Assembly (NCBI GenBank): GCA_000004695.1
Contig: CM000150.2
Location: 1,600,001 to 1,664,000 of the forward strand
DNA from: Dictyostelium discoideum
Lineage: Eukaryota
Direction of reading: 5' to 3'
DNA length: 64,000 nt
In this document: in pieces, positions 11,083 to 45,146 of the stretch
Layout: every line of letters begins with the position of its first letter
How positions within the stretch are numbered: the stretch's first letter is position 1
Program-made: the position numbers and the translations under genes
The notes under the pieces: generated by a model
The model's database searches: none
Told to the model about the DNA's origin: nothing
Seen by the model: only the letters and a program-made list of their open reading frames with translations

Positions 11083-14000
11083 TTAAATTGGAAGAGGGTT
11101 CGGAGCTGCTGGGGTTTGCCAGGCTTTGTTGAATTTGTATTTGTGAAGATCTTGATTGGTGTTTTTTAGTATTGCTTCGTCGTGTTTGATTTTCTTTAGT
11201 GTGATGAATTTTTCAGTTTCGATGAGATTTAGTAATTCTGTTTCTATGACCTTTTGCTCGAATTTTGGCTCTGGTTTGCTTTCATCAGTGTTGAACAATT
11301 TGTGACAGATTATCTTCCATAATTGGTGTGCTATTATTCCTATGAGATTGGGGAAGATTCTCTCAGTTCTGTTGTATTTTGATATGTCTAAGGTATCCAT
11401 TGACCATCTGTGGATTTTGATGAATGATAATTTGTTAACTGTTGATATGATGGTTTTTTCAATATCTAGGATATCTTGGCATAGAGTGAAGAGGTGAGAA
11501 TAAGGGTCTCTGAATAGGTGGCCACAGATCTTGCATCTGGTGTCTCTTTCGTGGTTGATACCTGGAAGTGATCTTGAGAAGAATCTGAAGAGGGTGTTTC
11601 TACCTTTTTGGTGAGAAATGCTGTTGATGTTTATGAATACTTTGGGTATTTCTGTGTTGTATCTCACCGCCCATAACTTCTGCCATTCTGTTCTTCTTGG
11701 TGTTGGGTGTCTGTCTTTGATCATGAGTTCGTAAATTTCTTTCAGTTTTAGTGGTTCATCATTGTCGTTTCTTATACAGTCTGGAAGTTCATTTATCTTT
11801 GGATGATTTTGGTAAAATTTGACTCTGAATACACCCCAGTGTCTGCACATATCGTTGAGGGTTGAAGTGTGGGCTTTTTTTCTACTTAATTGCTCCATGT
11901 ACCATTCTTGTAAAGTATTGTTGTTGTTGTTGTAGTTGTTATGGAGTAGCCTGTTCATGTACCAGATTTTGAATGCTATATGTCTTAGTTCTATATCCCA
12001 TAATTTTATGCCTCCTTCTTTCCAATCTGCATATGCTCTGTCTATTTTCATCATAGTTTTGTATTTTCTCTCTTCTGTATATGTATTCTTAACTGAGGAG
12101 AATAAGAACCATCTGGTCATGTTATTGATTTCCTCAATTTGTTCTTCATTTAGATTATCCATGTATTGATGGTATGTTAATTTGGATAGAACGTATGTTT
12201 TGAGAATTGTCATCTTTGCCTTCATCGTTATTGCTTGTGATTTCCATTTGATTAGATTGTTTTTCATTTCTTGGATTAAAGTGTTGTATTTTGAATTTAA
12301 ACCTGTTTTGGTGAAATTGAGGCCAAGATATCTTTCTGGGACTGTACTCTCTTGGAATGGTAGATCGTGTGGTTTATCTCCTATTGCTATCATTACTGTT
12401 TTCTCTTTGTTTAACGATGATGATGTTGCTGAGCAGTACTTTTGGATTTTAGTATTAATTTTCATTAGTTCTTCTGTGGAGTTTGTAAAGGTTGCTATGT
12501 CGTCAGCAAATGCAGTGAGTTTTAATGATTTGGAATTTGGTAGAGTGAAGCCTTTGATTGTATTATCATTGATGATATCTATTAGAAGTGGTTCTAAAAC
12601 TAGAGCAAAGATTGTTGGTGATATTGGGTCTCCTTGTTTTGTTCCTCTTCTGATTGTTATTCCATTGACTAAAAAGTCGTTGATCTTTATTTTGTTTTTA
12701 GTATCTTTGAGTAGGTTTAGTAGGATCGCTGTGAATTTTGGGGGGATACCAATATGCTCTAATGTTCTTGTGATACTCTTGTGGCTGATTGAATCGAATG
12801 CTTTGTTAAAATCGTAAAAGGTAATGAGTGTATTGTTCTTTCTTTTGTTACTTATTTCTATTACTTCCTTCATGATCTGAATATTGTCTTGGATGAACCT
12901 GTTTGGAACAAAGCCGTTTTGAAATTTGTTGATAATTTTACTGGTGATATCTAATAATCTACTGTTGAGAATTTTGCTTAAAATTTTGTAATCTGTATTG
13001 AGAAGGGTGATTGGTCTTCTATTTGAAATGTTTAGTTCATCTCCTTTTTTGAATATTGTTGTTATTACTCCTTCTTTGAATTTTGTGGGGATTTCTTTCT
13101 TATTTGTGAGGAGGTCGTTGAAAGCTATAGTCAATATTCTTGCTATTGAGTTGATGTGGTACTTGTAGAATAGTGCATTGATACCGTCTAAACCTGGAGA
13201 TTTGTGGATACTTGAAGTTTTGATTGCTTTGGTCACTTCATGTATTCTTATTGGTCTGTCTATCTCTAGTTTCTTGATTAAATCAACGTCTACTTCCCAT
13301 TTTTCTAATAACTTCTTGTGGGTTTCTTCGTTATCTTCTTTCTCTTCATATTGATCTTGATAGAATTCAACAAATCTTTTTGCTATGTTCTCTTTATCTG
13401 ATATGGGCTTATTATCTTTATCTTTTATTTGGAATATTGATTTATCTTTGGCTCTGGATTTAAGGATACTTGTGAGGTATTTGCTTGGTGTTTCTTGATG
13501 CAGGTGGAGTTTTAATTTGATATCCCATGCTTTTACCTTTCTTTCTTCTTCTAATATTCTACTTATTTCTTCATTGAGTTCTTTTCTCATCTTTGGAATG
13601 ATATCACTATTTTCAAGTAATTTGTGGATTACGTATTTTCTTTTGTTCTTTTCTTTCTTTATTTTGTTTTGTTCTTTTTTTAAATAATCTCTGATGACAT
13701 TATTTTTAAATTTCGTCCATTCCTCCACTGATTTGATCTTATCTTTGTTCTTACTGATTAATTCTGATAACCCATCATGTATATGTTTGTTGTTGAGAAT
13801 TTCTTTACATAATGTCCAAGGGAGTCTTTCTAGTTTGGTTGTTGTTGTTGTTGTTGTTTCTCTGTTGGTTTGTATTGAGATTGTGATGGGAAAGTGATCT
13901 GATTTGTTAAATACTGTGTTGTGGACTACCAATTTTGAATTTTGGTTTAGTAGTGTTGGATGACAGTAGATTCTATCTAGTCTCTTCATTGATCTTGGAA

Positions 14001-14526
14001 ATGTTGGAGTGTTTTCTTCAATACCAGTATCTAGTAGCATGTCTTGGTCTATTATTTTACGTAATTCAGTACCGAAGAAGCTGTTGCAATCGTGGTTGTT
14101 ATTGAAGTCGCCTGCTATTATTTGATGGTTGATTGAATTATATTTTTTAAACAGTGATTTTGAGTTGATTATGAAGGTGTTTCTTTCAGATATAGTCGCT
14201 GGAGCATAGATCAATAATATGTTGATAGAATTAAAGGAATTGTATTTAATTGATAGTATTCTACCATCATCGTCTTTGAAGTTTATTGATATGTGGCCTT
14301 TTCTTGTATCTCTATTTTCTATTGCTATGCCAGTTCCTTTACCTGAACCATGATCTATTCTTTCAAAGTTGAACATTGTTTTGTGGTGGTTGAATCCATT
14401 GAAATTAGTTTCAGTTAGGAGTGCTAATTGAGTGCCAATTCTTTTTATCGTTTCTTCTGTTTTATTCTTAGCGTTGGTTGATTGATTACCTCTGCAGTTC
14501 CATAGTAATAATTTTAATTGTTCCAT
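11083..14526 (-). CDS. TRE3 ORF2 polyprotein (endonuclease + reverse transcriptase)
   Basis: 1147-aa ORF containing the APE endonuclease region, the RT domain with FADD and the C-terminal Cys/His motif. Confidence 0.8.
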   Translation of the reverse strand: MEQLKLLLWNCRGNQSTNAKNKTEETIKRIGTQLALLTETNFNGFNHHKTMFNFERIDHGSGKGTGIAIENRDTRKGHISINFKDDDGRILSIKYNSFNSINILLIYAPATISERNTFIINSKSLFKKYNSINHQIIAGDFNNNHDCNSFFGTELRKIIDQDMLLDTGIEENTPTFPRSMKRLDRIYCHPTLLNQNSKLVVHNTVFNKSDHFPITISIQTNRETTTTTTTKLERLPWTLCKEILNNKHIHDGLSELISKNKDKIKSVEEWTKFKNNVIRDYLKKEQNKIKKEKNKRKYVIHKLLENSDIIPKMRKELNEEISRILEEERKVKAWDIKLKLHLHQETPSKYLTSILKSRAKDKSIFQIKDKDNKPISDKENIAKRFVEFYQDQYEEKEDNEETHKKLLEKWEVDVDLIKKLEIDRPIRIHEVTKAIKTSSIHKSPGLDGINALFYKYHINSIARILTIAFNDLLTNKKEIPTKFKEGVITTIFKKGDELNISNRRPITLLNTDYKILSKILNSRLLDITSKIINKFQNGFVPNRFIQDNIQIMKEVIEISNKRKNNTLITFYDFNKAFDSISHKSITRTLEHIGIPPKFTAILLNLLKDTKNKIKINDFLVNGITIRRGTKQGDPISPTIFALVLEPLLIDIINDNTIKGFTLPNSKSLKLTAFADDIATFTNSTEELMKINTKIQKYCSATSSSLNKEKTVMIAIGDKPHDLPFQESTVPERYLGLNFTKTGLNSKYNTLIQEMKNNLIKWKSQAITMKAKMTILKTYVLSKLTYHQYMDNLNEEQIEEINNMTRWFLFSSVKNTYTEERKYKTMMKIDRAYADWKEGGIKLWDIELRHIAFKIWYMNRLLHNNYNNNNNTLQEWYMEQLSRKKAHTSTLNDMCRHWGVFRVKFYQNHPKINELPDCIRNDNDEPLKLKEIYELMIKDRHPTPRRTEWQKLWAVRYNTEIPKVFININSISHQKGRNTLFRFFSRSLPGINHERDTRCKICGHLFRDPYSHLFTLCQDILDIEKTIISTVNKLSFIKIHRWSMDTLDISKYNRTERIFPNLIGIIAHQLWKIICHKLFNTDESKPEPKFEQKVIETELLNLIETEKFITLKKIKHDEAILKNTNQDLHKYKFNKAWQTPAAPNPLPI

Positions 14527-15508: not shown

Positions 15509-15579
15509 GGGGAGATCCGAGAATCGAACTCAGGACGCTACCACCCAAAGGTAGCATTATACCACTTAACTAATCTCCC
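15509..15579 (-). tRNA. tRNA-Pro (anticodon UGG), 71 nt, no encoded CCA
   Basis: Manual folding gives acceptor GGGAGAT/ATCTCCC, D-arm GTTA..TAAT, anticodon stem CTACC/GGTAG with loop TTTGGGT (U33, anticodon TGG, G37), and T-arm CTGAG-TTCGATT-CTCGG. The discriminator is C. Confidence 0.8.
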
Positions 15580-18453: not shown

Positions 18454-18524
18454 GGGGAGATCCGAGAATCGAACTCAGGACGCTACCACCCAAAGGTAGC
18501 ATTATACCACTTAACTAATCTCCC
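18454..18524 (-). tRNA. tRNA-Pro (UGG), second copy, identical to the one at 15509..15579
   Basis: Identical 71-nt sequence, including a conserved 3' flank of about 45 bp. Confidence 0.8.
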
Positions 18525-32148: not shown

Positions 32149-32773
32149 AAAAAAAAAGTACTTTATATGGTTACTAGAGTACCTAGATTCGTGACATGTT
32201 CTTCTTATGATGTTTGTTCTTGTAAATTTGTTAATGATTGCAATGCCTTCATAAACGATAATTTATCATAGTAAATAAAATAAATTAAAACATATAATTG
32301 TACAAAGCAAATTCCTATTTTTTCGTTTATTTAAAAATAAAACCAAAATATAAATTTTATTTTGGTTAATTTTTTTTTTTTTTTTTTTTTTCTAATCAAA
32401 TAAATAAAAGATTAATTATAAATAATTTTTTATATGTGTTCAAATTTTATTTTTGTATTGGCAAAACTTATTAAAATAACTCGGAACATTGTCCCACTTA
32501 GTTCAAAGGTTTTCTGTAATCAATAATGGCAATGGCACAGTGAGTGAAAGTTTCAAGCTTTCTTCAAACAAAATTACCCTTTCAATTTTTTGTATTTATA
32601 GTAAATTCCCAGCCATTTTATTGTTTAATTAATGTTTTTTTAAAAATGTATACAATATTTAGTTATGATTCCAATTATTATATTAAGTTTCTTATATGCG
32701 ACCAAAAATGTTTTTTCACCAAAAAAAATTTAAAAATGCATTGGAGCAAAATTAACAAAATTTCATAATAAGT

Positions 32774-32846
32774 GCCTGGATGGCTCAGTAGGCAGAGCGA
32801 GCGGCTGTTAACCGCTAGGTCCATGGTTCGATCCCATGTCTAGGCG
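32774..32846 (+). tRNA. tRNA-Asn (anticodon GUU), 73 nt
   Basis: Manual folding gives acceptor GCCTGGA/TCTAGGC, D-arm GCTC-AGTAGGCA-GAGC, anticodon stem AGCGG/CCGCT with loop CTGTTAA (anticodon GTT), variable loop AGGTC, and T-arm CATGG-TTCGATC-CCATG. The discriminator is G. Confidence 0.8.
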
Positions 32847-32876
32847 ATAATTTTCCACCACAATTACACGGTTTAA

Positions 32877-37374: not shown

Positions 37375-37504
37375 ATGAAATGTATATCAAATATAACATC
37401 AAGTAGCAGAAAACAAAAATTTTTAATTTTATTTATCCTTGTTGCAAGTTCTATATTGTTGATGTTTTATGATGAATTTAGTTTTATAACAGTATTTAAT
37501 AAAG

Positions 37505-37535
<31 letters not shown>

Positions 37536-39913
37536 CTATAGAACAAATCAATTTAAAGATAACGATAATATTTTTTACACTAATCGAATTTTAGAAGAAA
37601 CTAGGAATTCAGATGTTGTCATTTTTCTATGGGATCCATCATCAGAACGCGATGATTGGACAGGAATTTTAAAATCTAATAATTTAGTAACACAACAACA
37701 AATTGATGATTATAATAATAAAAAATCTTTATTTACTTCAACAACATCAACAACTTCTCATCCTTATACTAGTAGTAGAAGTAGTACTAGTACTAGTAGT
37801 AGAAGTAGTACTAGTACTAGTAGTAGAAGTAGTACTAGTGGAGGTAGAAGTAGTAGTGGAGGTAGTAGTACTAGTAGTGGAGGTAGTAGTACTAGTAGTG
37901 GAAGTAGTAGTACAACTAGTAGTAGAGGTAGTAGTACCACTAGTAGAAGTAGTAGTACTACTGGTATTAGAGGTGGTAGTAGTACAACTCAACAAACTGA
38001 AGTGGAAGCAGCAGCAGCAGTATCAGGTCAATTATCAATAGATTTTAATCAAAAATCACTATCAATAAAATTAAATGAAGTATTTAATGAAAAGAATAAA
38101 TGTTCATGTTCATGTAGATTTACAAATCTTCAAGAAGAGATTGTTGAGTCACATTTAATTTTATTTGATCCAGTTTATTTACATAAAGATAATTGGAAGA
38201 GATCACCATTAAAGTTACCAGAGAAACATTCACATCAAAAGTTTGGTTTATTTCATTATAACTCAAAGAGTCAATATTCAATACTCTCTAATAAACCATA
38301 TAATAACTTGATGGATATTGATATCTCTTACCTAAATAGTGATCATAATCTTGATATCACTTTAGCATGTCCACCCAATTCATCTTTTACCCTTGACGAC
38401 ACTTCAAAATTATTATTAAAAAAACACAAAGATTGGGATAAACGTAATAATTCTGCAATTTTCATTTCTTCAAATTGCGTAGATGGTTTATCATTATCAA
38501 GAACTGTATGTTTTTTTAAAAAAAAACAAATAATAACAATATAATAATATTAATTTATTTTTTTTTTTTTTTTATGTGATTTTTTAGAATTTAGTAAAAG
38601 AATTATCAAAAATTATTAAAATTGAATCATTAGGCAATTGTTTGAATGATAATACAGTTAATATTAAAAGTAAAGAAGAATTAGGATCAATTTATTCAAG
38701 AATTGAGTATAATATGGAAATTTATAAGAAAGCGAAATTTGTAATTTGTTTTGAGAATGAAAATTCAACAAACTATGTAACAGAGAAAGTTTATACTGCT
38801 TTATATGCTGGTGCAATACCAATTTGGATGGGTGCTAAAAATATTGATCAATATGTACCAACGGGTTCGATTATCAATGGAAATGAATTTAATAATATTA
38901 ATGAAATTGGTGAACATATAAAATCAATAATAGATGGTAAAATTGATTATAAAAGATATTTCAAATGGAAAGATGATAATGATAATCAATCATTAGAGAG
39001 TAAAGTTATTGATAAATTAAAACGTTGTATTAATACAGTTGATATGAAATGTAAAATTTGTGAGACCATTTATAAATCGATTGAGCAATCTGATAGGGAT
39101 TATCTATCATCAACTGTTGCTGCAAAGAATTATCATTATGTTTCAAACAATATTGGATATTATACACCCCAATTTGTGTCAATGAAAGGATTGGGTGACC
39201 ATATCTTTGTCAATAGGAATGAAGATACTTGTAAGAATTGTTTTAATCTTGATGATCATTATACCCTAATGGCATGGGTCAAGCCATCAACATTCTCTGA
39301 TCAGAGAATTATTGATAAGAATCATGCGGGAACAATTAGTGGATACAATTTCGATATTCAAAAGACATCAGGTGGTCGTGGTGTGGCTAGACTATGTGCG
39401 GGTACAGCATGTTTTGAATCCTTCAAGAGTATACCCAACGATTTATGGTCACATGTTGCTGTGGTGTTTAGTTGTAATAATTTAGATGTTCAAAAGAATC
39501 GTGTCACTTTTTATATAAATGGTGTGTTTAATGCAGAGTTTGATAATTTTAAACCAACTAAAATTAATGACTTCCCTTTGGTAATTGGTAAATCTGGTAA
39601 AAAAACTGAATCAACAAGTTATCATGGTATGATTGATGATATAATGATCTTTAATATCTCTCTAACCTCTGATGATATCAAATATGTACTCTCTTCAAAA
39701 CCAAATCTTTCCACCTTTAAATTTGCAAATGATCTTCAACTCTTTTATGATTTCGATTATAATCCAAATAATCCAAAATCACATGATCGTAATATAGTTC
39801 GTGATAAATCAATTTATAAAAATGATGGTACCTTTGCTAGTGGTTCAAGTGATGACTATTCTGAAAAAATAACTTCAATAAGTAAAGAAATATCTTTTAA
39901 TAAAAAATTATAA
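37375..39913 (+). CDS. Type II membrane alpha-1,3-fucosyltransferase (GT10 family) with a Ser/Thr-rich stem and a C-terminal concanavalin A-like / laminin-G-like domain. Proposed exons are 37375..38505 and 38588..39913.
   Basis: N-terminal signal anchor KFLILFILVASSILLMFY, then an (SSRSSTSTS)n stem coded by (AGT)n. A GTATGT donor lies at 38506 and a TTTTAG acceptor at 38586-38587 (phase 0). The GT10 motif FVICFENENSTNYVTEKVYTALYAGAIPIWMG corresponds to the FucT motif FxxxFENSxxxxYxTEKxxxAxxxGxVPV. The C-terminal ~250 aa (DDHYTLMAWVKPSTF ... WSHVAVVF ... VTFYINGV ... FPLVIGKSG ... YHGMIDDIMIFN) has the LamG/pentraxin beta-sandwich pattern. Confidence 0.65.
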
Positions 39914-40027
39914 AAAAATAAAACTAATAATAATAATAATAATAATAATAATTAATTTTATTTTATTTTATTTATTTATTTGAGGATATGTACAATTTAT
40001 AGTTATTATTATTATTTTGTAAATTAT

Positions 40028-40576
40028 TTATATTTGTAATTTTAATTTTTCAATTATTTTTAAAGATTCATCTATGTGAGAAGTTGAACTAAGTAAACCA
40101 TCATGTATACCTGCTATAATACCATGTTTATCAATGATGAATGTTTTTCTACCAGGTAATAATATACCGTTAACACCATATAATTTAGCTAATTTACTAT
40201 GTTTATCTGTCAATAATGTGAATGGTAATGAATATTTTGAAACGAATGATTTATGACTATCTTCACCATCACTACTAACCCCGATTACTTCTGCACCGGC
40301 TTCTATAAATTTTTGATATTTATCTCTAAATTCACAACTCTCTATAAAAGTATGTAAGAATGTTGTTATTTTATTAGTATCAATGAATGTTAATGAGGTA
40401 TTGTAATAAATAAATTAAATATTACCTTTTGTGCATACTGGACTATTATCTTTTGGATAAAAGTATAAAACGATTGGTTGACTCTTATCTTTAAATTCTT
40501 TGAGTGTAACTGTTTGACCTAAATAATTTTTAGCTTCAAAATCTGGTGCAACATTTCCAACTTTTAATTTTGTCAT
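40028..40576 (-). CDS. Peroxiredoxin Q / BCP-type thiol peroxidase (atypical 2-Cys, CxxxxC). Proposed exons are 40576..40426 and 40341..40028.
   Basis: Exon 1 encodes MTKLKVGNVAPDFEAKNYLGQTVTLKEFKDKSQPIVLYFYPKDNSPVCTK. A GGTAAT donor follows at minus 40425 and a TTATAG acceptor at 40343-40342 (phase 1), leading into ESCEFRDKYQKFIEAGAEVIGVSSD... The signature YFYPKDxTPxCTxExCxFRD, with peroxidatic and resolving Cys five residues apart, is diagnostic of the BCP/PrxQ subfamily. The track shows only the last 61 aa. Confidence 0.75.
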
Positions 40577-40872
40577 TCTTTTATTGATTTTTTTATATTA
40601 TATTGATTTTTTAATTTATGAACTAAAATTATTAATTATTAATTGTATAATTATTATTTATTTGATTGATTGTTGTATATTATTAAATTTATATTTTTAA
40701 TGATTAATAAAAATAATTTATTTTTGTTTAAATATTATTTTAAAAATAAACACTGAACACTTCGAAATAATTCATTATGCAAAAGAACCTATTTATTTAA
40801 AAAATCGTCATTTTCCGACATGAAGAATCAAAAGAATGAAAAAAAATAAAATTCAAAGAAAGGGATTATATG

Positions 40873-40917
<45 letters not shown>

Positions 40918-41106
40918 AAAATGTATAAAGAATTCCAACTATCAAAAAGTGGATAAAATGAAAAAAATTAATTATTTTATAACTTTAAATTAAATCTTTG
41001 ATATAATTTTTATTTTATTTATAAATAAATAATTTATTTTTTTTTTTTTTTTTTTTTTTTTTTCTTTACATAATTTTGGATGAATTCCAATTGGGATAGT
41101 GCATAA

Positions 41107-41971
41107 TTAATTTCCTTCGAAAAAATATTGAGATGGGCTATATGTTTGAGATCTATTTAAAATTTCTTTATCTTTATACATTTTTGGTAACATGAAAGAT
41201 GGATTCCAAGTTTTTTGTAATTCTGTAACGTCTGAAGAAACTTGATATTTTCCCTTTGATTCATAGGGTCTATTTTCTATACCGTCAGTATTAAAGAAAA
41301 CGATTTGTGCTAAACGTCTACCCACTACTAATGGAATTGAATAGTGTCTACTATTATTAGTGATCTCCATTGTCCATCTACTAACATAACCGACATCTCC
41401 CATACCTGCACATTTACAAACCTAAGTATATATATATAAATATATATAAATAATAATATTAGTATTTAAATAAAATACTAATATTATTATTATATATAAT
41501 AATAATAATAATAATTACTTCAATAAAATTTCTACCCATTGAAGATCTTGCTTTCATCATTGTTGTTACAGTTTTATTACCACCAATAAATTCATTTGTG
41601 TGAGCTAAAATTGTTTCTTTAGGTTTAATCCAAATGATTAATTCGTCATCGGCTATATTGTCTAATTTAATACCAGACCTTGCTGACCATGATGCATGAG
41701 TCTCTGCTTTTTTAAATGATCCCCAAACTCTATCAACCATTTCTTCAGAGTATGGATTATAAACACCTGCTCCTGATTCTGGCTCGGTTTCTCTATAATA
41801 ATAAGGTCCAAGTGTGACGTCATAAGATGATGTTGATAAATTGTCTCTAACAAATGGTGTTATAACAACTGTACCAATTTCCATATGTCTTAATATTGCT
41901 TTATCTGATAATAATGAAAATTCTTGTTTTTTACTATCATTATTATCATTATTATTTGTTGGTTCGTTCAT
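41107..41971 (-). CDS. dCTP deaminase-like protein (dUTPase superfamily, bacterial Dcd type). Proposed exons are 41971..41519 and 41421..41107.
   Basis: A GTAATT donor follows ...GRNFIE at minus 41518, then a 97-bp AT-rich intron and a CTTAG acceptor at 41423-41422 (phase 0). The exon-1 region ILRHMEIGTVVITPFVRDNLSTSSYDVTLG is similar to Dcd IEAWLDEGRLSINP...ATVDVRLG. Exon 2 (CKCAGMGDVGYVSRWTMEI...GRRLAQIVFF) is similar to the Dcd C-terminal region HRIDPGWSG...LRPGMLIGALSF. Confidence 0.55.
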
Positions 41972-42717: not shown

Positions 42718-45146
42718 ATGAGAAGGTAAGAAAAAAAAAAAAAAAGATATTAATCTCTTAAACAACAAAGTATATTTATTGTTTTTTTTTCTAATTATTT
42801 TTAAATAATAATAATAATAATAATAATAGAATTTATAAAGTTAATTATTTTACAAGAAATAAATCAATAGTTTTCATAATATTAGTATCATTTATAGTTT
42901 TATTTAAATTTCAATATGATGTTATTAAATTAAGTGAACAATTACAAAAAGAAAAGATTATCAGTTCACAAAAACAAATAGAATTGGAAGAACTTGGTTC
43001 GTATATAAATTTGTTGGAAAGAAGATTTATAGAATTAGGTGGTGACAGTGAAAATTGGGGTTGTAAAAGAAGTAGTAACAATAGACCTCAATTAATCTCG
43101 AGTAGTGATAATTACAATGATGATGATTATGATGGTGGTGATTATTACTATGATGAATATATTGAAGATGATAATATTAAGTTATTATCATTAGAAACAA
43201 TGATGAGAATTCAAGAATTAAAATATGATCCAAATATTGTACAATCACCAAGATGTATAAAAGAAGCCAATTCAATTAAATTAATGTGTTCAAAATTTAA
43301 ATATAATTATAGAACTAAATATAATTTTATTGGTATTCATGATCAATTAAATAATACATCACCAATAAAATCAAAATTTTCATCATTTGAAAATGGCAGT
43401 GGTGTTGGTGCTGGTGGTGCTAGTGATGATGATATTAAAGATTCAAATTTATTAATTTTAAGAAATCCATCAAGTGGTGTTTCAAATTTTAAAGTTTCAA
43501 AAAGAGCAAAACTTTCATTTGAAGAAGTATTGATCGATGTTAATGATGTTTATATTGCACCAAGTTTTGGTAGTAGTTGGGGTGATTTTAATGGTGATGG
43601 TTGGATTGATCTTTATATTGGTAATCATTATTGGCCATCTAGATTATTTTTAAATGAAAATGGTACATCATTTAGAGATGTTTCATCAAATTATATAAAA
43701 GGATATGATAAAATGAAATTTTTGGATAAACATGCCTCAGCATGGGCTGATTTTAATAAAGATGGAAATTTAGATCTATTAGAGACAACAGGTGCAAAGT
43801 ACGGTACAAGTTCATTACCAAATAATTTATATGTTAATTATGGTGGTGGTGGTACTGGTGGTGGTACTTCTAATTCAAGTGGAGATTCTCCCCAATTTTG
43901 GTCAGAAGAAGCTGTAAAAAGATCAATTGATTATCCATTTGCAAGAGGTAGAACTATAACATGGTTAGATTATGATAGTGATGGTGAGTTGGATGCATTT
44001 GTATCTTCACAGAAAAGATCGGATGGTAAGGGTGATAGTGCACTTTTTAGACAAAAAAAAGGTGGCCAATTCTTTGATGTTAGTAAATTCGTTGGTATGA
44101 ATATAGTTACAATGATTCTATTCGTTAGACAAACTGATTTAGATAATGATGGTGAATTGGAACTATTGTTAATAAGTTACACATTTCCATTCAAAGTTTA
44201 CCATACCAATAGAGATGACCCATATAAAGCATTCACCGATGTAACCTCATCCTTTTTTCCATTGAATACTGATGAAGTTGAGAAACATCAAGTTGCAATT
44301 GAAAATTCCACAATTAGATGGGTACCTTCTTCGGCTAAAACTGGTTTAATATCAATTGTTAGTGATTTGGCATTTGGTGATATGGATGGTAATGGTTGGC
44401 AAGATGTTATCATCGCTAGGAATTATCATGGTACTTGTATAGTTTCCATCTATTATAATCATGGATTATATGAGAATGATAAAGAGAGAATTCAAGATCA
44501 ACCAGGTATTAGAAAATCTTCGAAATTAAAATGGAAACTTTTAGATATCTATAGTGATAATACCACCAAATGCGGTTCATTGGTAGTTGCCGATTTCAAT
44601 AATGACTTCAATTTAGACATTTATTTAGTCACTCATCTAACTCACTCAAATTCACCCAATGTAATGATTTTCAATGATGGTGATGGTGGTAATTTCTCAA
44701 TTAGGGCTGATGGTGTCGGTGCTGGTGGTTCAACATTTGGTAAAGGTGAATCAGTAACAATGGCAGATTATAACAATGATGGTTACTTGGATTTACTAGT
44801 TACCAATGGTAAAGGTTCACCACCCTTTGATGTTGGTCCAGTTCAATTATTTAAAAATTTAAATTCCGGTAGAAATTGGTTAGAGATTGAATTGATTGGT
44901 ATTAATGAGAATGCTCATGGTTTTGGTTCAAGAATTACAATCACTGCTTGTAAAAAAACTCAATTTCGTGATGTTGAATCAGGTGTTCACTTTTCAGCTC
45001 AAAACTCTTTTCGAACTCATTTCGGTCTTAATTTTTGTCCAAAAATTACTGAAATTAAAATTTATTGGCAACGTTCAAAACAATATCAAATCTTAAAAAA
45101 TATTAATCCAAATCAAATTTTAAAAATTACTGAAGATGTTTTTTAG
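42718..45146 (+). CDS. ASPIC/UnbV-domain protein with multiple FG-GAP/VCBS-type repeats (CRTAC1-like). Proposed exons are 42718..42725 and 42830..45146.
   Basis: An ATGAGAAG micro-exon is followed by a GTAAGA donor at 42726, a 104-bp intron and an AATAG acceptor at 42828-42829 (phase 2). This opens the frame that otherwise has a TAA at 42792 and no ATG. A hydrophobic signal anchor SIVFIILVSFIVLF follows. At least seven Ca-binding-like repeats are present (FNGDGWIDLYIG, FNKDGNLDLL, YDSDGELDAF, LDNDGELELL, MDGNGWQDVI, FNNDFNLDIY, YNNDGYLDLL). The C-terminal UnbV_ASPIC signature is NWLEIELIGINENAHGFGSRITI...RDVESGVHFSAQNSFRTHFGL. Confidence 0.6.

Follow-up and report, generated by a model that had tools for sequence, protein, structure and literature searches.

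The window, that is, the whole stretch of 64,000 nucleotides analysed here (Dictyostelium discoideum contig CM000150.2, positions 1,600,001 to 1,664,000 of the forward strand), had a D. discoideum-like GC content of approximately 22%. Two genes, dcd2 and prx, were found on its minus strand with 530 bp (40577..41106) separating them. The genes and their surroundings consisted of the following features, given in window positions.

37375..39913, plus strand: flanking gene for a GT10 fucosyltransferase and Laminin_G_3 protein, convergent with prx and dcd2
39952..41017, no strand: segment present in D. discoideum and missing from the collinear D. firmibasis locus; boundaries approximate, from blastn HSP ends
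39984..40797, minus strand: duplicated prx unit, comprising the gene and its flanks (~44 bp on the 3' side, ~220 bp on the 5' side), with blastn homology to tandem-array units
40576..40028, minus strand: prx gene (PrxQ/BCP peroxiredoxin), 154-aa product, one 84-nt intron
40426..40576, minus strand: prx exon 1, codons 1–50 and the first base of codon 51, with the PxxxSxxC motif and the predicted peroxidatic Cys48
40342..40425, minus strand: prx intron, 84 nt, phase 1, 18% GC, GT..AG, GTAATATT...TTTTATAG, lying between Cys48 and Cys53
40028..40341, minus strand: prx exon 2, remainder of codon 51 to codon 154 and the stop, with the predicted resolving Cys53 and the conserved Arg115
40577..41106, no strand: spacer from the dcd2 stop to the prx ATG, 530 bp
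41971..41107, minus strand: dcd2 gene (dCTP deaminase), 255-aa product, one 97-nt intron
41519..41971, minus strand: dcd2 exon 1, ATG at 41971, codons 1–151, RSSMGR motif at residues 142–147
41422..41518, minus strand: dcd2 intron, 97 nt, phase 0, 5% GC, GT..AG, GTAATTAT...ATACTTAG
41107..41421, minus strand: dcd2 exon 2, codons 152–255 and the stop, with the predicted catalytic Glu170 within TMEITN
42984..45146, plus strand: flanking gene for an FG-GAP/UnbV_ASPIC protein, divergent from dcd2

The spliced translations were identical, residue for residue and over their full length, to the annotated AX4 proteins XP_647627.1/Q55FA6 ("dCTP deaminase") and XP_647626.1/Q55FA7 ("AhpC/TSA family protein"). 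An intron-less Dcd from a CPR bacterium aligned across the dcd2 splice junction without a gap, and the intron-less D. purpureum Prx P0147 did so across the prx junction; these gap-free alignments support the predicted splice sites of both genes. The gene models thus confirmed what the earlier note had described, namely same-strand neighbours about 530 bp apart with GT..AG introns of 84 and 97 bp, and its family assignments (PrxQ/BCP peroxiredoxin and Dcd-type deaminase) proved right. The spacer contained an A-run at approximately 40870–40917, and its part from 40577 to about 40797 represents the 5' flank that was co-duplicated with the prx unit. tRNA and Rfam scans of the window returned nothing inside 39.9–42.1 kb. 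A scan for sigma-70 promoters and terminators found fewer sites than in shuffled controls, the scan model being bacterial and irrelevant to a eukaryote. A weak tblastn match to Prx at 13276–13449 falls inside a retrotransposon ORF and was rejected as a chance match.

The deaminase gene is dcd2Dicty (DDB_G0268194) of D. discoideum AX4 chromosome 1, an already published gene. Its CDS had a GC content of 0.311, the same value as is listed for dcd2Dicty (XM_642535.1/DDB_G0268194) in the published supplement (PMC10733785); the mapping of XM_642535.1 to XP_647627.1 was based on GC content, chromosome and clade. The Pfam DCD profile (PF22769) matched the protein at 1.4e-28 and 100.3 bits (cut-off 27) over residues 21–195 and profile positions 2–152 of 153. 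Exon 1, for which the earlier note had considered a failure to match, therefore fits the dCTP deaminase/dUTPase fold. The NCBIfam equivalog TIGR02274 scored 87.5 bits, narrowly under its cut-off of 92.8, and the Dcd2 clade is divergent from canonical bacterial Dcd. Features common to Dcd2, to bacterial and archaeal Dcd and to the bifunctional DCD-DUT enzymes (Bacillus halodurans 4XJC; Methanocaldococcus jannaschii 1OGH) are a dUTPase-like DCD domain, RSSxGR and a catalytic Glu. Glu170 aligned with M. jannaschii E145, the site marked by the mutant PDB entries 3GF0 (Q) and 2HXD (A), and RSSMGR at residues 142–147 keeps RSSxGR, so that the catalytic Ser, Arg and Glu whose conservation the earlier note had wished to see checked are all in place. 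The similarity to B. halodurans 4XJC was nevertheless distant (phmmer 3e-11), and no E. coli Dcd entry passed 1e-3. Dcd2 is also approximately 50–70 residues longer than bacterial and archaeal Dcd, the extra length coming from an insertion inside the protein and a tail at its C-terminus, both of which can also be seen in the CPR homologs.

The function of this gene has been addressed experimentally. According to Liang, Mower & Chia (2023, MBE 40:msad268; PMC10733785), dcd2Dicty rescues the growth of an E. coli dcd-knockout, partially rescues an S. pombe dCMP-deaminase knockout by relieving its hydroxyurea sensitivity, and encodes a protein detected by proteomics. As this published complementation shows, the product is a dCTP deaminase (trimeric dUTPase superfamily) converting dCTP to dUTP. 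The dUTP is then passed through dUTPase and ThyX towards dTMP, so that the dCMP deaminases are not the only source of dTTP. That a eukaryote makes dTTP through a dCTP deaminase of the prokaryotic type, in a genome of extreme AT-richness, is real, but was published in 2023 together with functional tests and a phylogeny. That paper does not deal with the prx neighbour or the local synteny, and D. firmibasis is not named in its available text.

Similarity searches with Dcd2 revealed relatives in dictyostelids, Vannella, Arcella, Plasmodiophora, a cercozoan and Paceibacteria (CPR), the last at 61% identity, while giant-virus MAG contigs carried homologs at 47–62% identity. These matches share the members of the published tree (Amoebozoa, Rhizaria, giant viruses and CPR bacteria), and thereby the published clade of the identical gene was reproduced. 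In the CPR contigs, the dcd homolog lay inside a thyA-HAD-dcd-DHFR cluster, with tmk and SHMT nearby. The published phylogeny points to a gene that Amoebozoa or Rhizaria received horizontally, its source being prokaryotic or a giant virus (PMC10733785), and the suggestion in the earlier note of a prokaryote-derived deaminase domesticated in an amoeba had accordingly already been reported for dcd2Dicty, with a virus as a further possible source. The clade lies next to giant viruses and CPR bacteria. Very probably, dcd2 came into eukaryotes by an ancient horizontal transfer, after which it ameliorated to the host composition and gained lineage-specific introns later. The intron is found at the same aligned position in D. 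firmibasis, whereas the D. purpureum intron lies 13 codons off and in a different phase. Judged from these alignments, the D. discoideum dcd2 intron is not old and, being common to D. firmibasis, is not strictly species-specific either.

The second gene encodes a protein that matched Pfam AhpC-TSA (PF00578) at 3.1e-41 and 140.6 bits (cut-off 26). The peroxiredoxin active-site motif Px3(T/S)x2C could be read as P41-K-D-N-S45-P-V-C48, and R115 was located within LPGRKT. C48 and C53 are the only cysteines of the protein and have the alpha2-type CxxxxC spacing; together with R56 and R115 they were invariant in 20 dictyostelid paralogs. The top NCBIfam families were PrxQ and BCP, both under their narrow equivalog cut-offs. 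The top PDB matches belonged mostly to the BCP/PrxQ class (3DRN, 2CX3, 2YWN, 3HJP and 2A4V), and the best solved relative was Sulfolobus solfataricus Bcp1 (3DRN; 2e-35, 125 bits). The prx product is therefore predicted as an atypical 2-Cys peroxiredoxin of the PrxQ/BCP class with peroxidatic Cys48, resolving Cys53 and Arg115, and, judging by its motifs, its presumed role is the thioredoxin-dependent reduction of peroxides.

The AhpC-TSA fold, the Px3(T/S)x2C motif, the CxxxxC spacing and the conserved Arg are common to S. solfataricus Bcp1, plant PrxQ, E. coli BCP and the dictyostelid protein, which was approximately 47–55% identical to bacterial, archaeal and plant PrxQ. It differs from them in having Ser where Thr stands in the PrxQ/BCP active-site motif and in lacking the organellar extension carried by plant PrxQ; unlike these named systems, it sits in a dictyostelid-specific clade rich in paralogs. 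The yeast nuclear thiol peroxidase Dot5 (2A4V) belongs to the same class but matched more weakly (2e-15, 60 bits, compared with 125 bits for Bcp1), which indicates that the amoeba protein is no close relative of the fungal PrxQ form. The description of PrxQ in the earlier note as a bacterial and plastid subfamily is too narrow, as the class is also present in fungi (PMC4749874) and, as a BCP-type peroxiredoxin, in Acanthamoeba (PMC8038987).

Tandem arrays of 2–6 prx copies with a spacing of approximately 1.6–1.7 kb occur elsewhere in D. discoideum strain genomes. The copy in the window was 98% identical in protein and 93–94% identical in CDS nucleotides to the array copies. By blastn, the whole unit showed 79–82% identity over 820–880 bp to five array loci (L004–L008), and its 3' half approximately 90% identity to a further array locus (L003). 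The intron position and phase were common to 6/6 D. discoideum array paralogs examined; in D. firmibasis P0145, a phase-1 intron was found one codon earlier, as counted along a protein one residue shorter. The retention of the intron and of the ~220 bp promoter flank indicates that the prx gene of the window is a DNA-level segmental duplicate. The gene belongs to a multigene family of dictyostelid PrxQ proteins, tandemly amplified in D. discoideum. Among codons for identical amino acids, 15–19% differed between this copy and the arrays, compared with 25% between dcd2 of D. discoideum and of D. firmibasis; the duplication could, however, look too young through gene conversion among copies. An array locus was also considered as the ancestral prx site and dropped, since the small-GTPase neighbours of D. 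purpureum and D. discoideum were only 43% identical over 49 aa.

Synteny analysis revealed that D. firmibasis is collinear across 33.3–51.3 kb of the window (~18 kb), and that no prx is found there between dcd2 and the fucosyltransferase gene, which directly abuts dcd2; the ~1.07-kb prx segment is absent. By blastn, window positions 39602–39951 corresponded to 11338–10979 of the D. firmibasis locus L001, and 41018–41300 to 10940–10664 of the same locus. Exact insertion ends and target-site duplications were sought in a MAFFT alignment, which was ambiguous in the AT-rich flanks, so that the boundaries given are approximate. The FG-GAP/UnbV_ASPIC gene on the other side also adjoins dcd2 in D. 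firmibasis, D. citrinum and D. purpureum. Among the species examined, prx-dcd2 adjacency was kept only in several D. discoideum strains and in D. citrinum, where an extra ORF of 949 aa lies between the two genes. In D. purpureum, Heterostelium and Cavenderia, prx was likewise missing up to a distance of 10 kb from dcd2. In the lineage of D. discoideum and D. citrinum, a prx copy would thus have been inserted between dcd2 and its fucosyltransferase neighbour, most likely after the split from D. firmibasis. Instead of this insertion, a deletion may have occurred in D. firmibasis; D. purpureum is rearranged on the prx-side of dcd2 and is a poor outgroup.

Taken together, dcd2 and prx are very probably functionally unrelated, ordinary nuclear genes with separate histories, the published dcd2 and a recent segmental duplicate of prx, which became neighbours by chance. 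The locus as a whole is known biology plus chance adjacency.

The origin of the PrxQ family itself was assessed using a search against 50%-representative sequences, cluster names, a neighbour-joining tree and a GTDB genome scan, the last being biased by its two peptide patterns. The dictyostelid family formed one clade that included one Bacteroidota sequence in 41/60 neighbour-joining bootstraps, in a tree that is only indicative. Further relatives were scattered among Bacteroidota, cyanobacteria, Bathyarchaeia, Sulfolobaceae, Verrucomicrobiota and plants at 39–55% identity, and a single prokaryotic donor was rejected on account of this scatter over many groups. Among the top 120 matches to a dictyostelid PrxQ profile, there was no named non-dictyostelid eukaryote, and beyond dictyostelids only bacterial or metagenomic sequences appeared. 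Searches of the literature yielded neither a paper dealing with where the Dictyostelium PrxQ genes come from nor biochemical data for the prx product. The family may represent a separate and unreported acquisition from prokaryotes by dictyostelids, followed by introns, tandem arrays variable in copy number among D. discoideum strains and dispersed copies such as that in the window; we put this forward tentatively and with less than even confidence. Its own clade, the bacterial or metagenomic matches that directly follow the dictyostelid ones and the distance of Dot5 are compatible with such an acquisition. If it is true, PrxQ may have been amplified because defence against peroxides is favoured in a soil amoeba that feeds on bacteria.

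Alternatively, both genes may have descended vertically from early eukaryotes and been lost in most lineages, their adjacency being incidental. The presence of the PrxQ class in fungi and plants (PMC4749874), in Acanthamoeba (PMC8038987) and in Blattamonas is in line with such retention, as is the neighbour-joining tree, in which the branching point of the dictyostelid PrxQ clade is not resolved. For Dcd2, however, an occurrence only in Amoebozoa and Rhizaria would need many losses, and the published tree argues against vertical descent (PMC10733785). For PrxQ, yeast Dot5 (2e-15) is far more distant than archaeal Bcp1 (2e-35), and the profile matches lacked other named eukaryotes, as described above. 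Ancestral retention is thus considered unlikely.

It is less likely still that the two genes were paired by selection for their function, as a mini-cluster through which nucleotide metabolism is co-regulated with redox defence. That D. citrinum as well as several D. discoideum strains have kept the pair could be taken in favour of this, but the pair is missing from every other species examined, the prx unit came with ~220 bp of its own upstream flank, and D. citrinum tolerates the 949-aa ORF between the genes. To our knowledge, no biochemical link between dCTP deaminase and PrxQ exists, which also counts against such a pairing.

The earlier note had favoured an old block, with dcd and prx entering together as one horizontally transferred prokaryotic segment and acquiring introns later. 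If true, this would be a rare multi-gene horizontal transfer into a eukaryote, and the common strand, the merely 530 bp between the genes and the prokaryotic identity of the highest-scoring non-dictyostelid relatives of both are what such a block would offer. Synteny says otherwise. The prx gene is missing from the otherwise collinear D. firmibasis locus and from the 10-kb surroundings of dcd2 in the three other species, and none was found in the examined flanks of Dcd2 homologs at five loci, two on CPR contigs (L011 and L012) and three on giant-virus contigs (L018–L020). The nearest relatives also diverge, Dcd2 being closest to CPR bacteria and giant viruses and PrxQ to Bacteroidota, cyanobacteria, archaea and plants, without a CPR or viral signal. 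The local prx is, moreover, a paralog 98% identical to array copies elsewhere. Joint acquisition is therefore highly improbable, and the claim does not stand. On a small scale, the locus cleanly illustrates that segmental duplication within an expanding gene family can give rise to a misleading "cluster" of prokaryote-like genes, and sister-species synteny should be checked before co-transfer is inferred.

Bacterial contamination or misassembly, suggested by nothing more than the prokaryote-like family assignments, is scarcely credible, as both genes contain AT-rich GT..AG introns, have a host-like composition (GC3 of 11% and 17%) and occur in several independent Dictyostelium assemblies with conserved synteny.

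The window had a GC content of about 22%, an extreme AT-richness as expected for Dictyostelium. Minus-strand reading and splicing at the proposed sites yielded two clean frames, for a peroxiredoxin (prx, 154 aa product) and a dCTP deaminase (dcd2, 255 aa product), separated by a 530 bp spacer.

Gene models of prx and dcd2 (window positions)
40576..40426, minus strand, prx exon 1
40425..40342, minus strand, prx intron (84 nt, GT..AG, 18% GC, phase 1)
40341..40028, minus strand, prx exon 2
41971..41519, minus strand, dcd2 exon 1
41518..41422, minus strand, dcd2 intron (97 nt, GT..AG, 5% GC, phase 0)
41421..41107, minus strand, dcd2 exon 2

The products showed exact end-to-end identity to D. discoideum AX4 proteins XP_647626.1/Q55FA7 ("AhpC/TSA family protein") and XP_647627.1/Q55FA6 ("dCTP deaminase"), both on one 4,923,596-bp AX4 record, which we take to be chromosome 1. 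Each intron split essential active-site elements: Cys48 (exon 1) from Cys53 and Arg115 (exon 2) in prx, and RSSMGR (residues 142–147, exon 1) from the catalytic Glu170 (exon 2) in dcd2. Intron-less relatives aligned straight across both splice junctions. The intron lengths, borders and spacer of the earlier note were all confirmed by the reconstructed genes and the AX4 matches.

Pfam analysis of the deaminase revealed a DCD domain (PF22769, 1.4e-28) over residues 21–195; exon 1 therefore fits the dCTP deaminase/dUTPase fold, and the catalytic residues were present. The score against the NCBIfam dCTP deaminase equivalog (87.5 bits) was slightly below its cut-off of 92.8. Two prokaryote-like dCTP deaminases of D. 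discoideum, dcd1 (DDB_G0293580) and dcd2 (DDB_G0268194), are described by Liang, Mower and Chia (Mol Biol Evol 2023, PMC10733785). In that study, each gene rescued an E. coli dcd knockout and made an S. pombe dCMP-deaminase knockout less sensitive to hydroxyurea, and both products were seen in proteomics. Its phylogeny places a Dcd2 clade of Amoebozoa and Rhizaria within CPR bacteria, with giant viruses as the sister group; the authors read this as a horizontal transfer, with a prokaryote or virus as donor, on the order of 1.25–1.4 billion years ago.

The CDS GC of the window gene was 0.311, the same as the value for dcd2Dicty (XM_642535.1) in the supplement to that publication. A homolog search with the window protein recovered dictyostelids, Vannella, Arcella, Plasmodiophora, a cercozoan and a Paceibacteria protein (61% identity, core motifs near-identical), and giant-virus MAG contigs matched at 47–62% identity. 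On the matching CDS GC, the AX4 record and the reproduced Dcd2 clade, the window gene is dcd2. The view of the deaminase as a domesticated prokaryote- or virus-type gene was borne out by our search and by the phylogeny in PMC10733785, where this origin is already published.

In Paceibacteria, the Dcd2-type gene occurred in a compact thyA, HAD phosphatase, dcd and DHFR cluster (L011 8551–11261, L012 1–2008); genes for thymidylate kinase and SHMT lay a short way upstream. This setting fits a role in dTTP synthesis, and the HAD hydrolase may be a nucleotidase of that pathway. EukProt model P0098 (437 aa), also found in the Dcd homolog search, carried Laminin_G_3 and DCD domains in one protein; neighbouring genes of another species may have been joined in this model, or the fusion may be genuine.

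Intron mapping revealed that the D. discoideum dcd2 intron was common to D. firmibasis only. The single D. purpureum intron (L002 10468–10558) lay 13 codons downstream in phase 2, and Heterostelium album (L009 10188–10259, 10601–10674) and Cavenderia (L010 10227–10308, 10510–10605) had one common intron at alignment column 117 in phase 1, at a site different from that of D. discoideum, and one unique intron apiece. This agrees with PMC10733785, in which dcd2 introns are described as mostly young. Since the sites differ and are mostly young, the D. discoideum intron is not evidence of antiquity.

The peroxiredoxin matched Pfam AhpC-TSA (3.1e-41) and carried PxxxSxxC, a CxxxxC pair formed by its sole cysteines, Cys48 and Cys53, and the conserved Arg115. 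The best solved relative was S. solfataricus Bcp1 (3DRN, 2e-35), with yeast Dot5 at just 2e-15. The protein is an alpha2-type, atypical 2-Cys PrxQ/BCP. The PrxQ/BCP assignment of the earlier note was right; its label "bacterial and plastid" was too narrow, because PrxQ is known from archaea and fungi as well as from bacteria and plants, though not from animals (PREX-based review, PMC4749874), and Acanthamoeba has a BCP-type enzyme (PMC8038987).

PrxQ paralogs were numerous in D. discoideum, and one subfamily with >90% identity among members formed tandem arrays of 2–6 copies at ~1.6–1.7 kb spacing in D. discoideum strains. In the array loci (L003–L008; GCA_054859355.1, GCA_054883475.1, GCA_054859385.1), prx introns were 120–210 nt long, copy number seemingly varied by strain and locus, and some copies adjoined reverse-transcriptase ORFs.

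The D. firmibasis dcd2 locus was collinear with window 33.3–51.3 kb, in the order unknown 1047-aa gene, GT10/LamG, dcd2, FG-GAP/ASPIC, Rpb7-like, F-actin capping protein beta and amino-acid transporter; prx was absent from this locus. Window 39602–39951 and 41018–41300 aligned only ~40 bp apart in D. firmibasis DNA, so ~1.07 kb (39952–41017) is specific to D. discoideum. Within it, 39984–40797, comprising the gene with its intron and flanks of ~44 bp (3') and ~220 bp (5'), showed 79–82% DNA identity over 820–880 bp to the array units (CDS 93–94%, protein 98%). The intron lay at codon 50, phase 1, in 6/6 array copies examined. The gene for D. firmibasis Prx (P0145), a protein one residue shorter, was interrupted at codon 49, again in phase 1 and probably at the same site; that for D. 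purpureum Prx (P0147) was intron-less, and Heterostelium prx introns differed. Retroposition was ruled out as the source by the retained intron common to the array copies; as the matching intron and flanks show, the window prx arose by DNA-level duplication.

A prx was also present at the D. citrinum dcd2 locus. There, a 949-aa ORF lay between the two genes (L016 7310–10159). Its N-terminus resembled a signal peptide, its sequence was repetitive and Ser/Thr-rich, and Pfam gave no match; it had no window counterpart, so this intergenic region took up insertions repeatedly. In D. purpureum, Heterostelium and Cavenderia, no prx was found within 10 kb of dcd2, and none lay beside Dcd2 homologs in the CPR and giant-virus contigs examined. 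Joint acquisition of the two genes as one block is contradicted by these absences, by that in D. firmibasis and by the near-identity to array paralogs; the earlier interpretation is partly supported overall, because the deaminase is a domesticated gene. The adjacency is a recent, incidental duplication.

As a rough clock, which gene conversion could bias, we used the share of differing codons among those encoding identical amino acids. This was 15–19% between the window prx and array copies, 19% against the same-locus D. citrinum copy and 25% for dcd2 in the D. discoideum–D. firmibasis comparison. The duplication is thus roughly dated to about the time when D. discoideum and D. citrinum separated, later than the divergence from D. 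firmibasis. The opposite polarity, deletion of prx in D. firmibasis, is conceivable; even then the adjacency would be limited to a small subclade. Under the duplication reading, a prx unit with its own upstream flank would have inserted in the dcd2/GT10 intergenic region, making the genes neighbours. Judging from its motifs, Prx would reduce peroxides at Cys48, form a Cys48-Cys53 intramolecular disulfide and be recycled by thioredoxin. Dcd2 converts dCTP to dUTP, a second route towards dTMP beside dCMP deaminases (PMC10733785).

When 50%-identity representatives were searched exhaustively and their cluster names looked up, the nearest PrxQ sequences were, in order, other dictyostelid paralogs, unnamed metagenome sequences, plant PrxQ (Oryza, Klebsormidium, Diphasiastrum), Blattamonas and Bacteroidales. 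A neighbour-joining tree of 177 sequences placed 20/20 dictyostelid sequences together with one Bacteroidota sequence (41/60 bootstraps), whose contig carries a Por_Secre_tail gene, and did not resolve the deeper attachment. With a dictyostelid profile, dictyostelids scored 221–276 bits, followed by a bacterial or metagenomic plateau at 205–216 bits, with no named non-dictyostelid eukaryote among the best 120 matches. A GTDB genome scan, biased by the peptide patterns used, revealed relatives at 39–53% identity. Bacteroidota predominated among them, archaea and Verrucomicrobiota also occurred, and no single donor stood out. A separate prokaryotic origin of the dictyostelid family is possible. 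The plastid-lacking metamonad Blattamonas nauphoetae had three PrxQ genes (P0275 and cluster members), annotated "Peroxiredoxin Q, chloroplastic" and ~46% identical to the amoeba enzyme, which suggests a patchy, possibly transfer-driven, distribution among protists.

Other features of the window
42984–45146, plus strand, FG-GAP/UnbV_ASPIC gene, neighbour of dcd2
11083–14526, minus strand, 1147-aa ORF with Exo_endo_phos and reverse-transcriptase domains
15509–15579, minus strand, tRNA-Pro(UGG), next to the 1147-aa retroelement-type ORF
18454–18524, minus strand, second tRNA-Pro(UGG), same anticodon and Rfam score, 2.9 kb from the first
32773–32847, plus strand, tRNA-Asn(GUU)

The 1147-aa ORF just beside tRNA-Pro(UGG) shows the pattern of Dictyostelium tRNA-gene-targeted non-LTR retroelements. 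The FG-GAP/UnbV_ASPIC gene, a domain combination common in bacteria, adjoined dcd2 in D. discoideum, D. firmibasis (L001 7011–9438), D. citrinum (L016 2989–5399) and D. purpureum (L002 11385–13782), in the last inverted relative to dcd2. Three Endotoxin_N (Cry-toxin-like) genes of ~650 aa lay directly upstream of dcd2 in Heterostelium album (L009 1835–9936); this family is also counted among dictyostelid horizontal-transfer candidates, and the juxtaposition was Heterostelium-specific.
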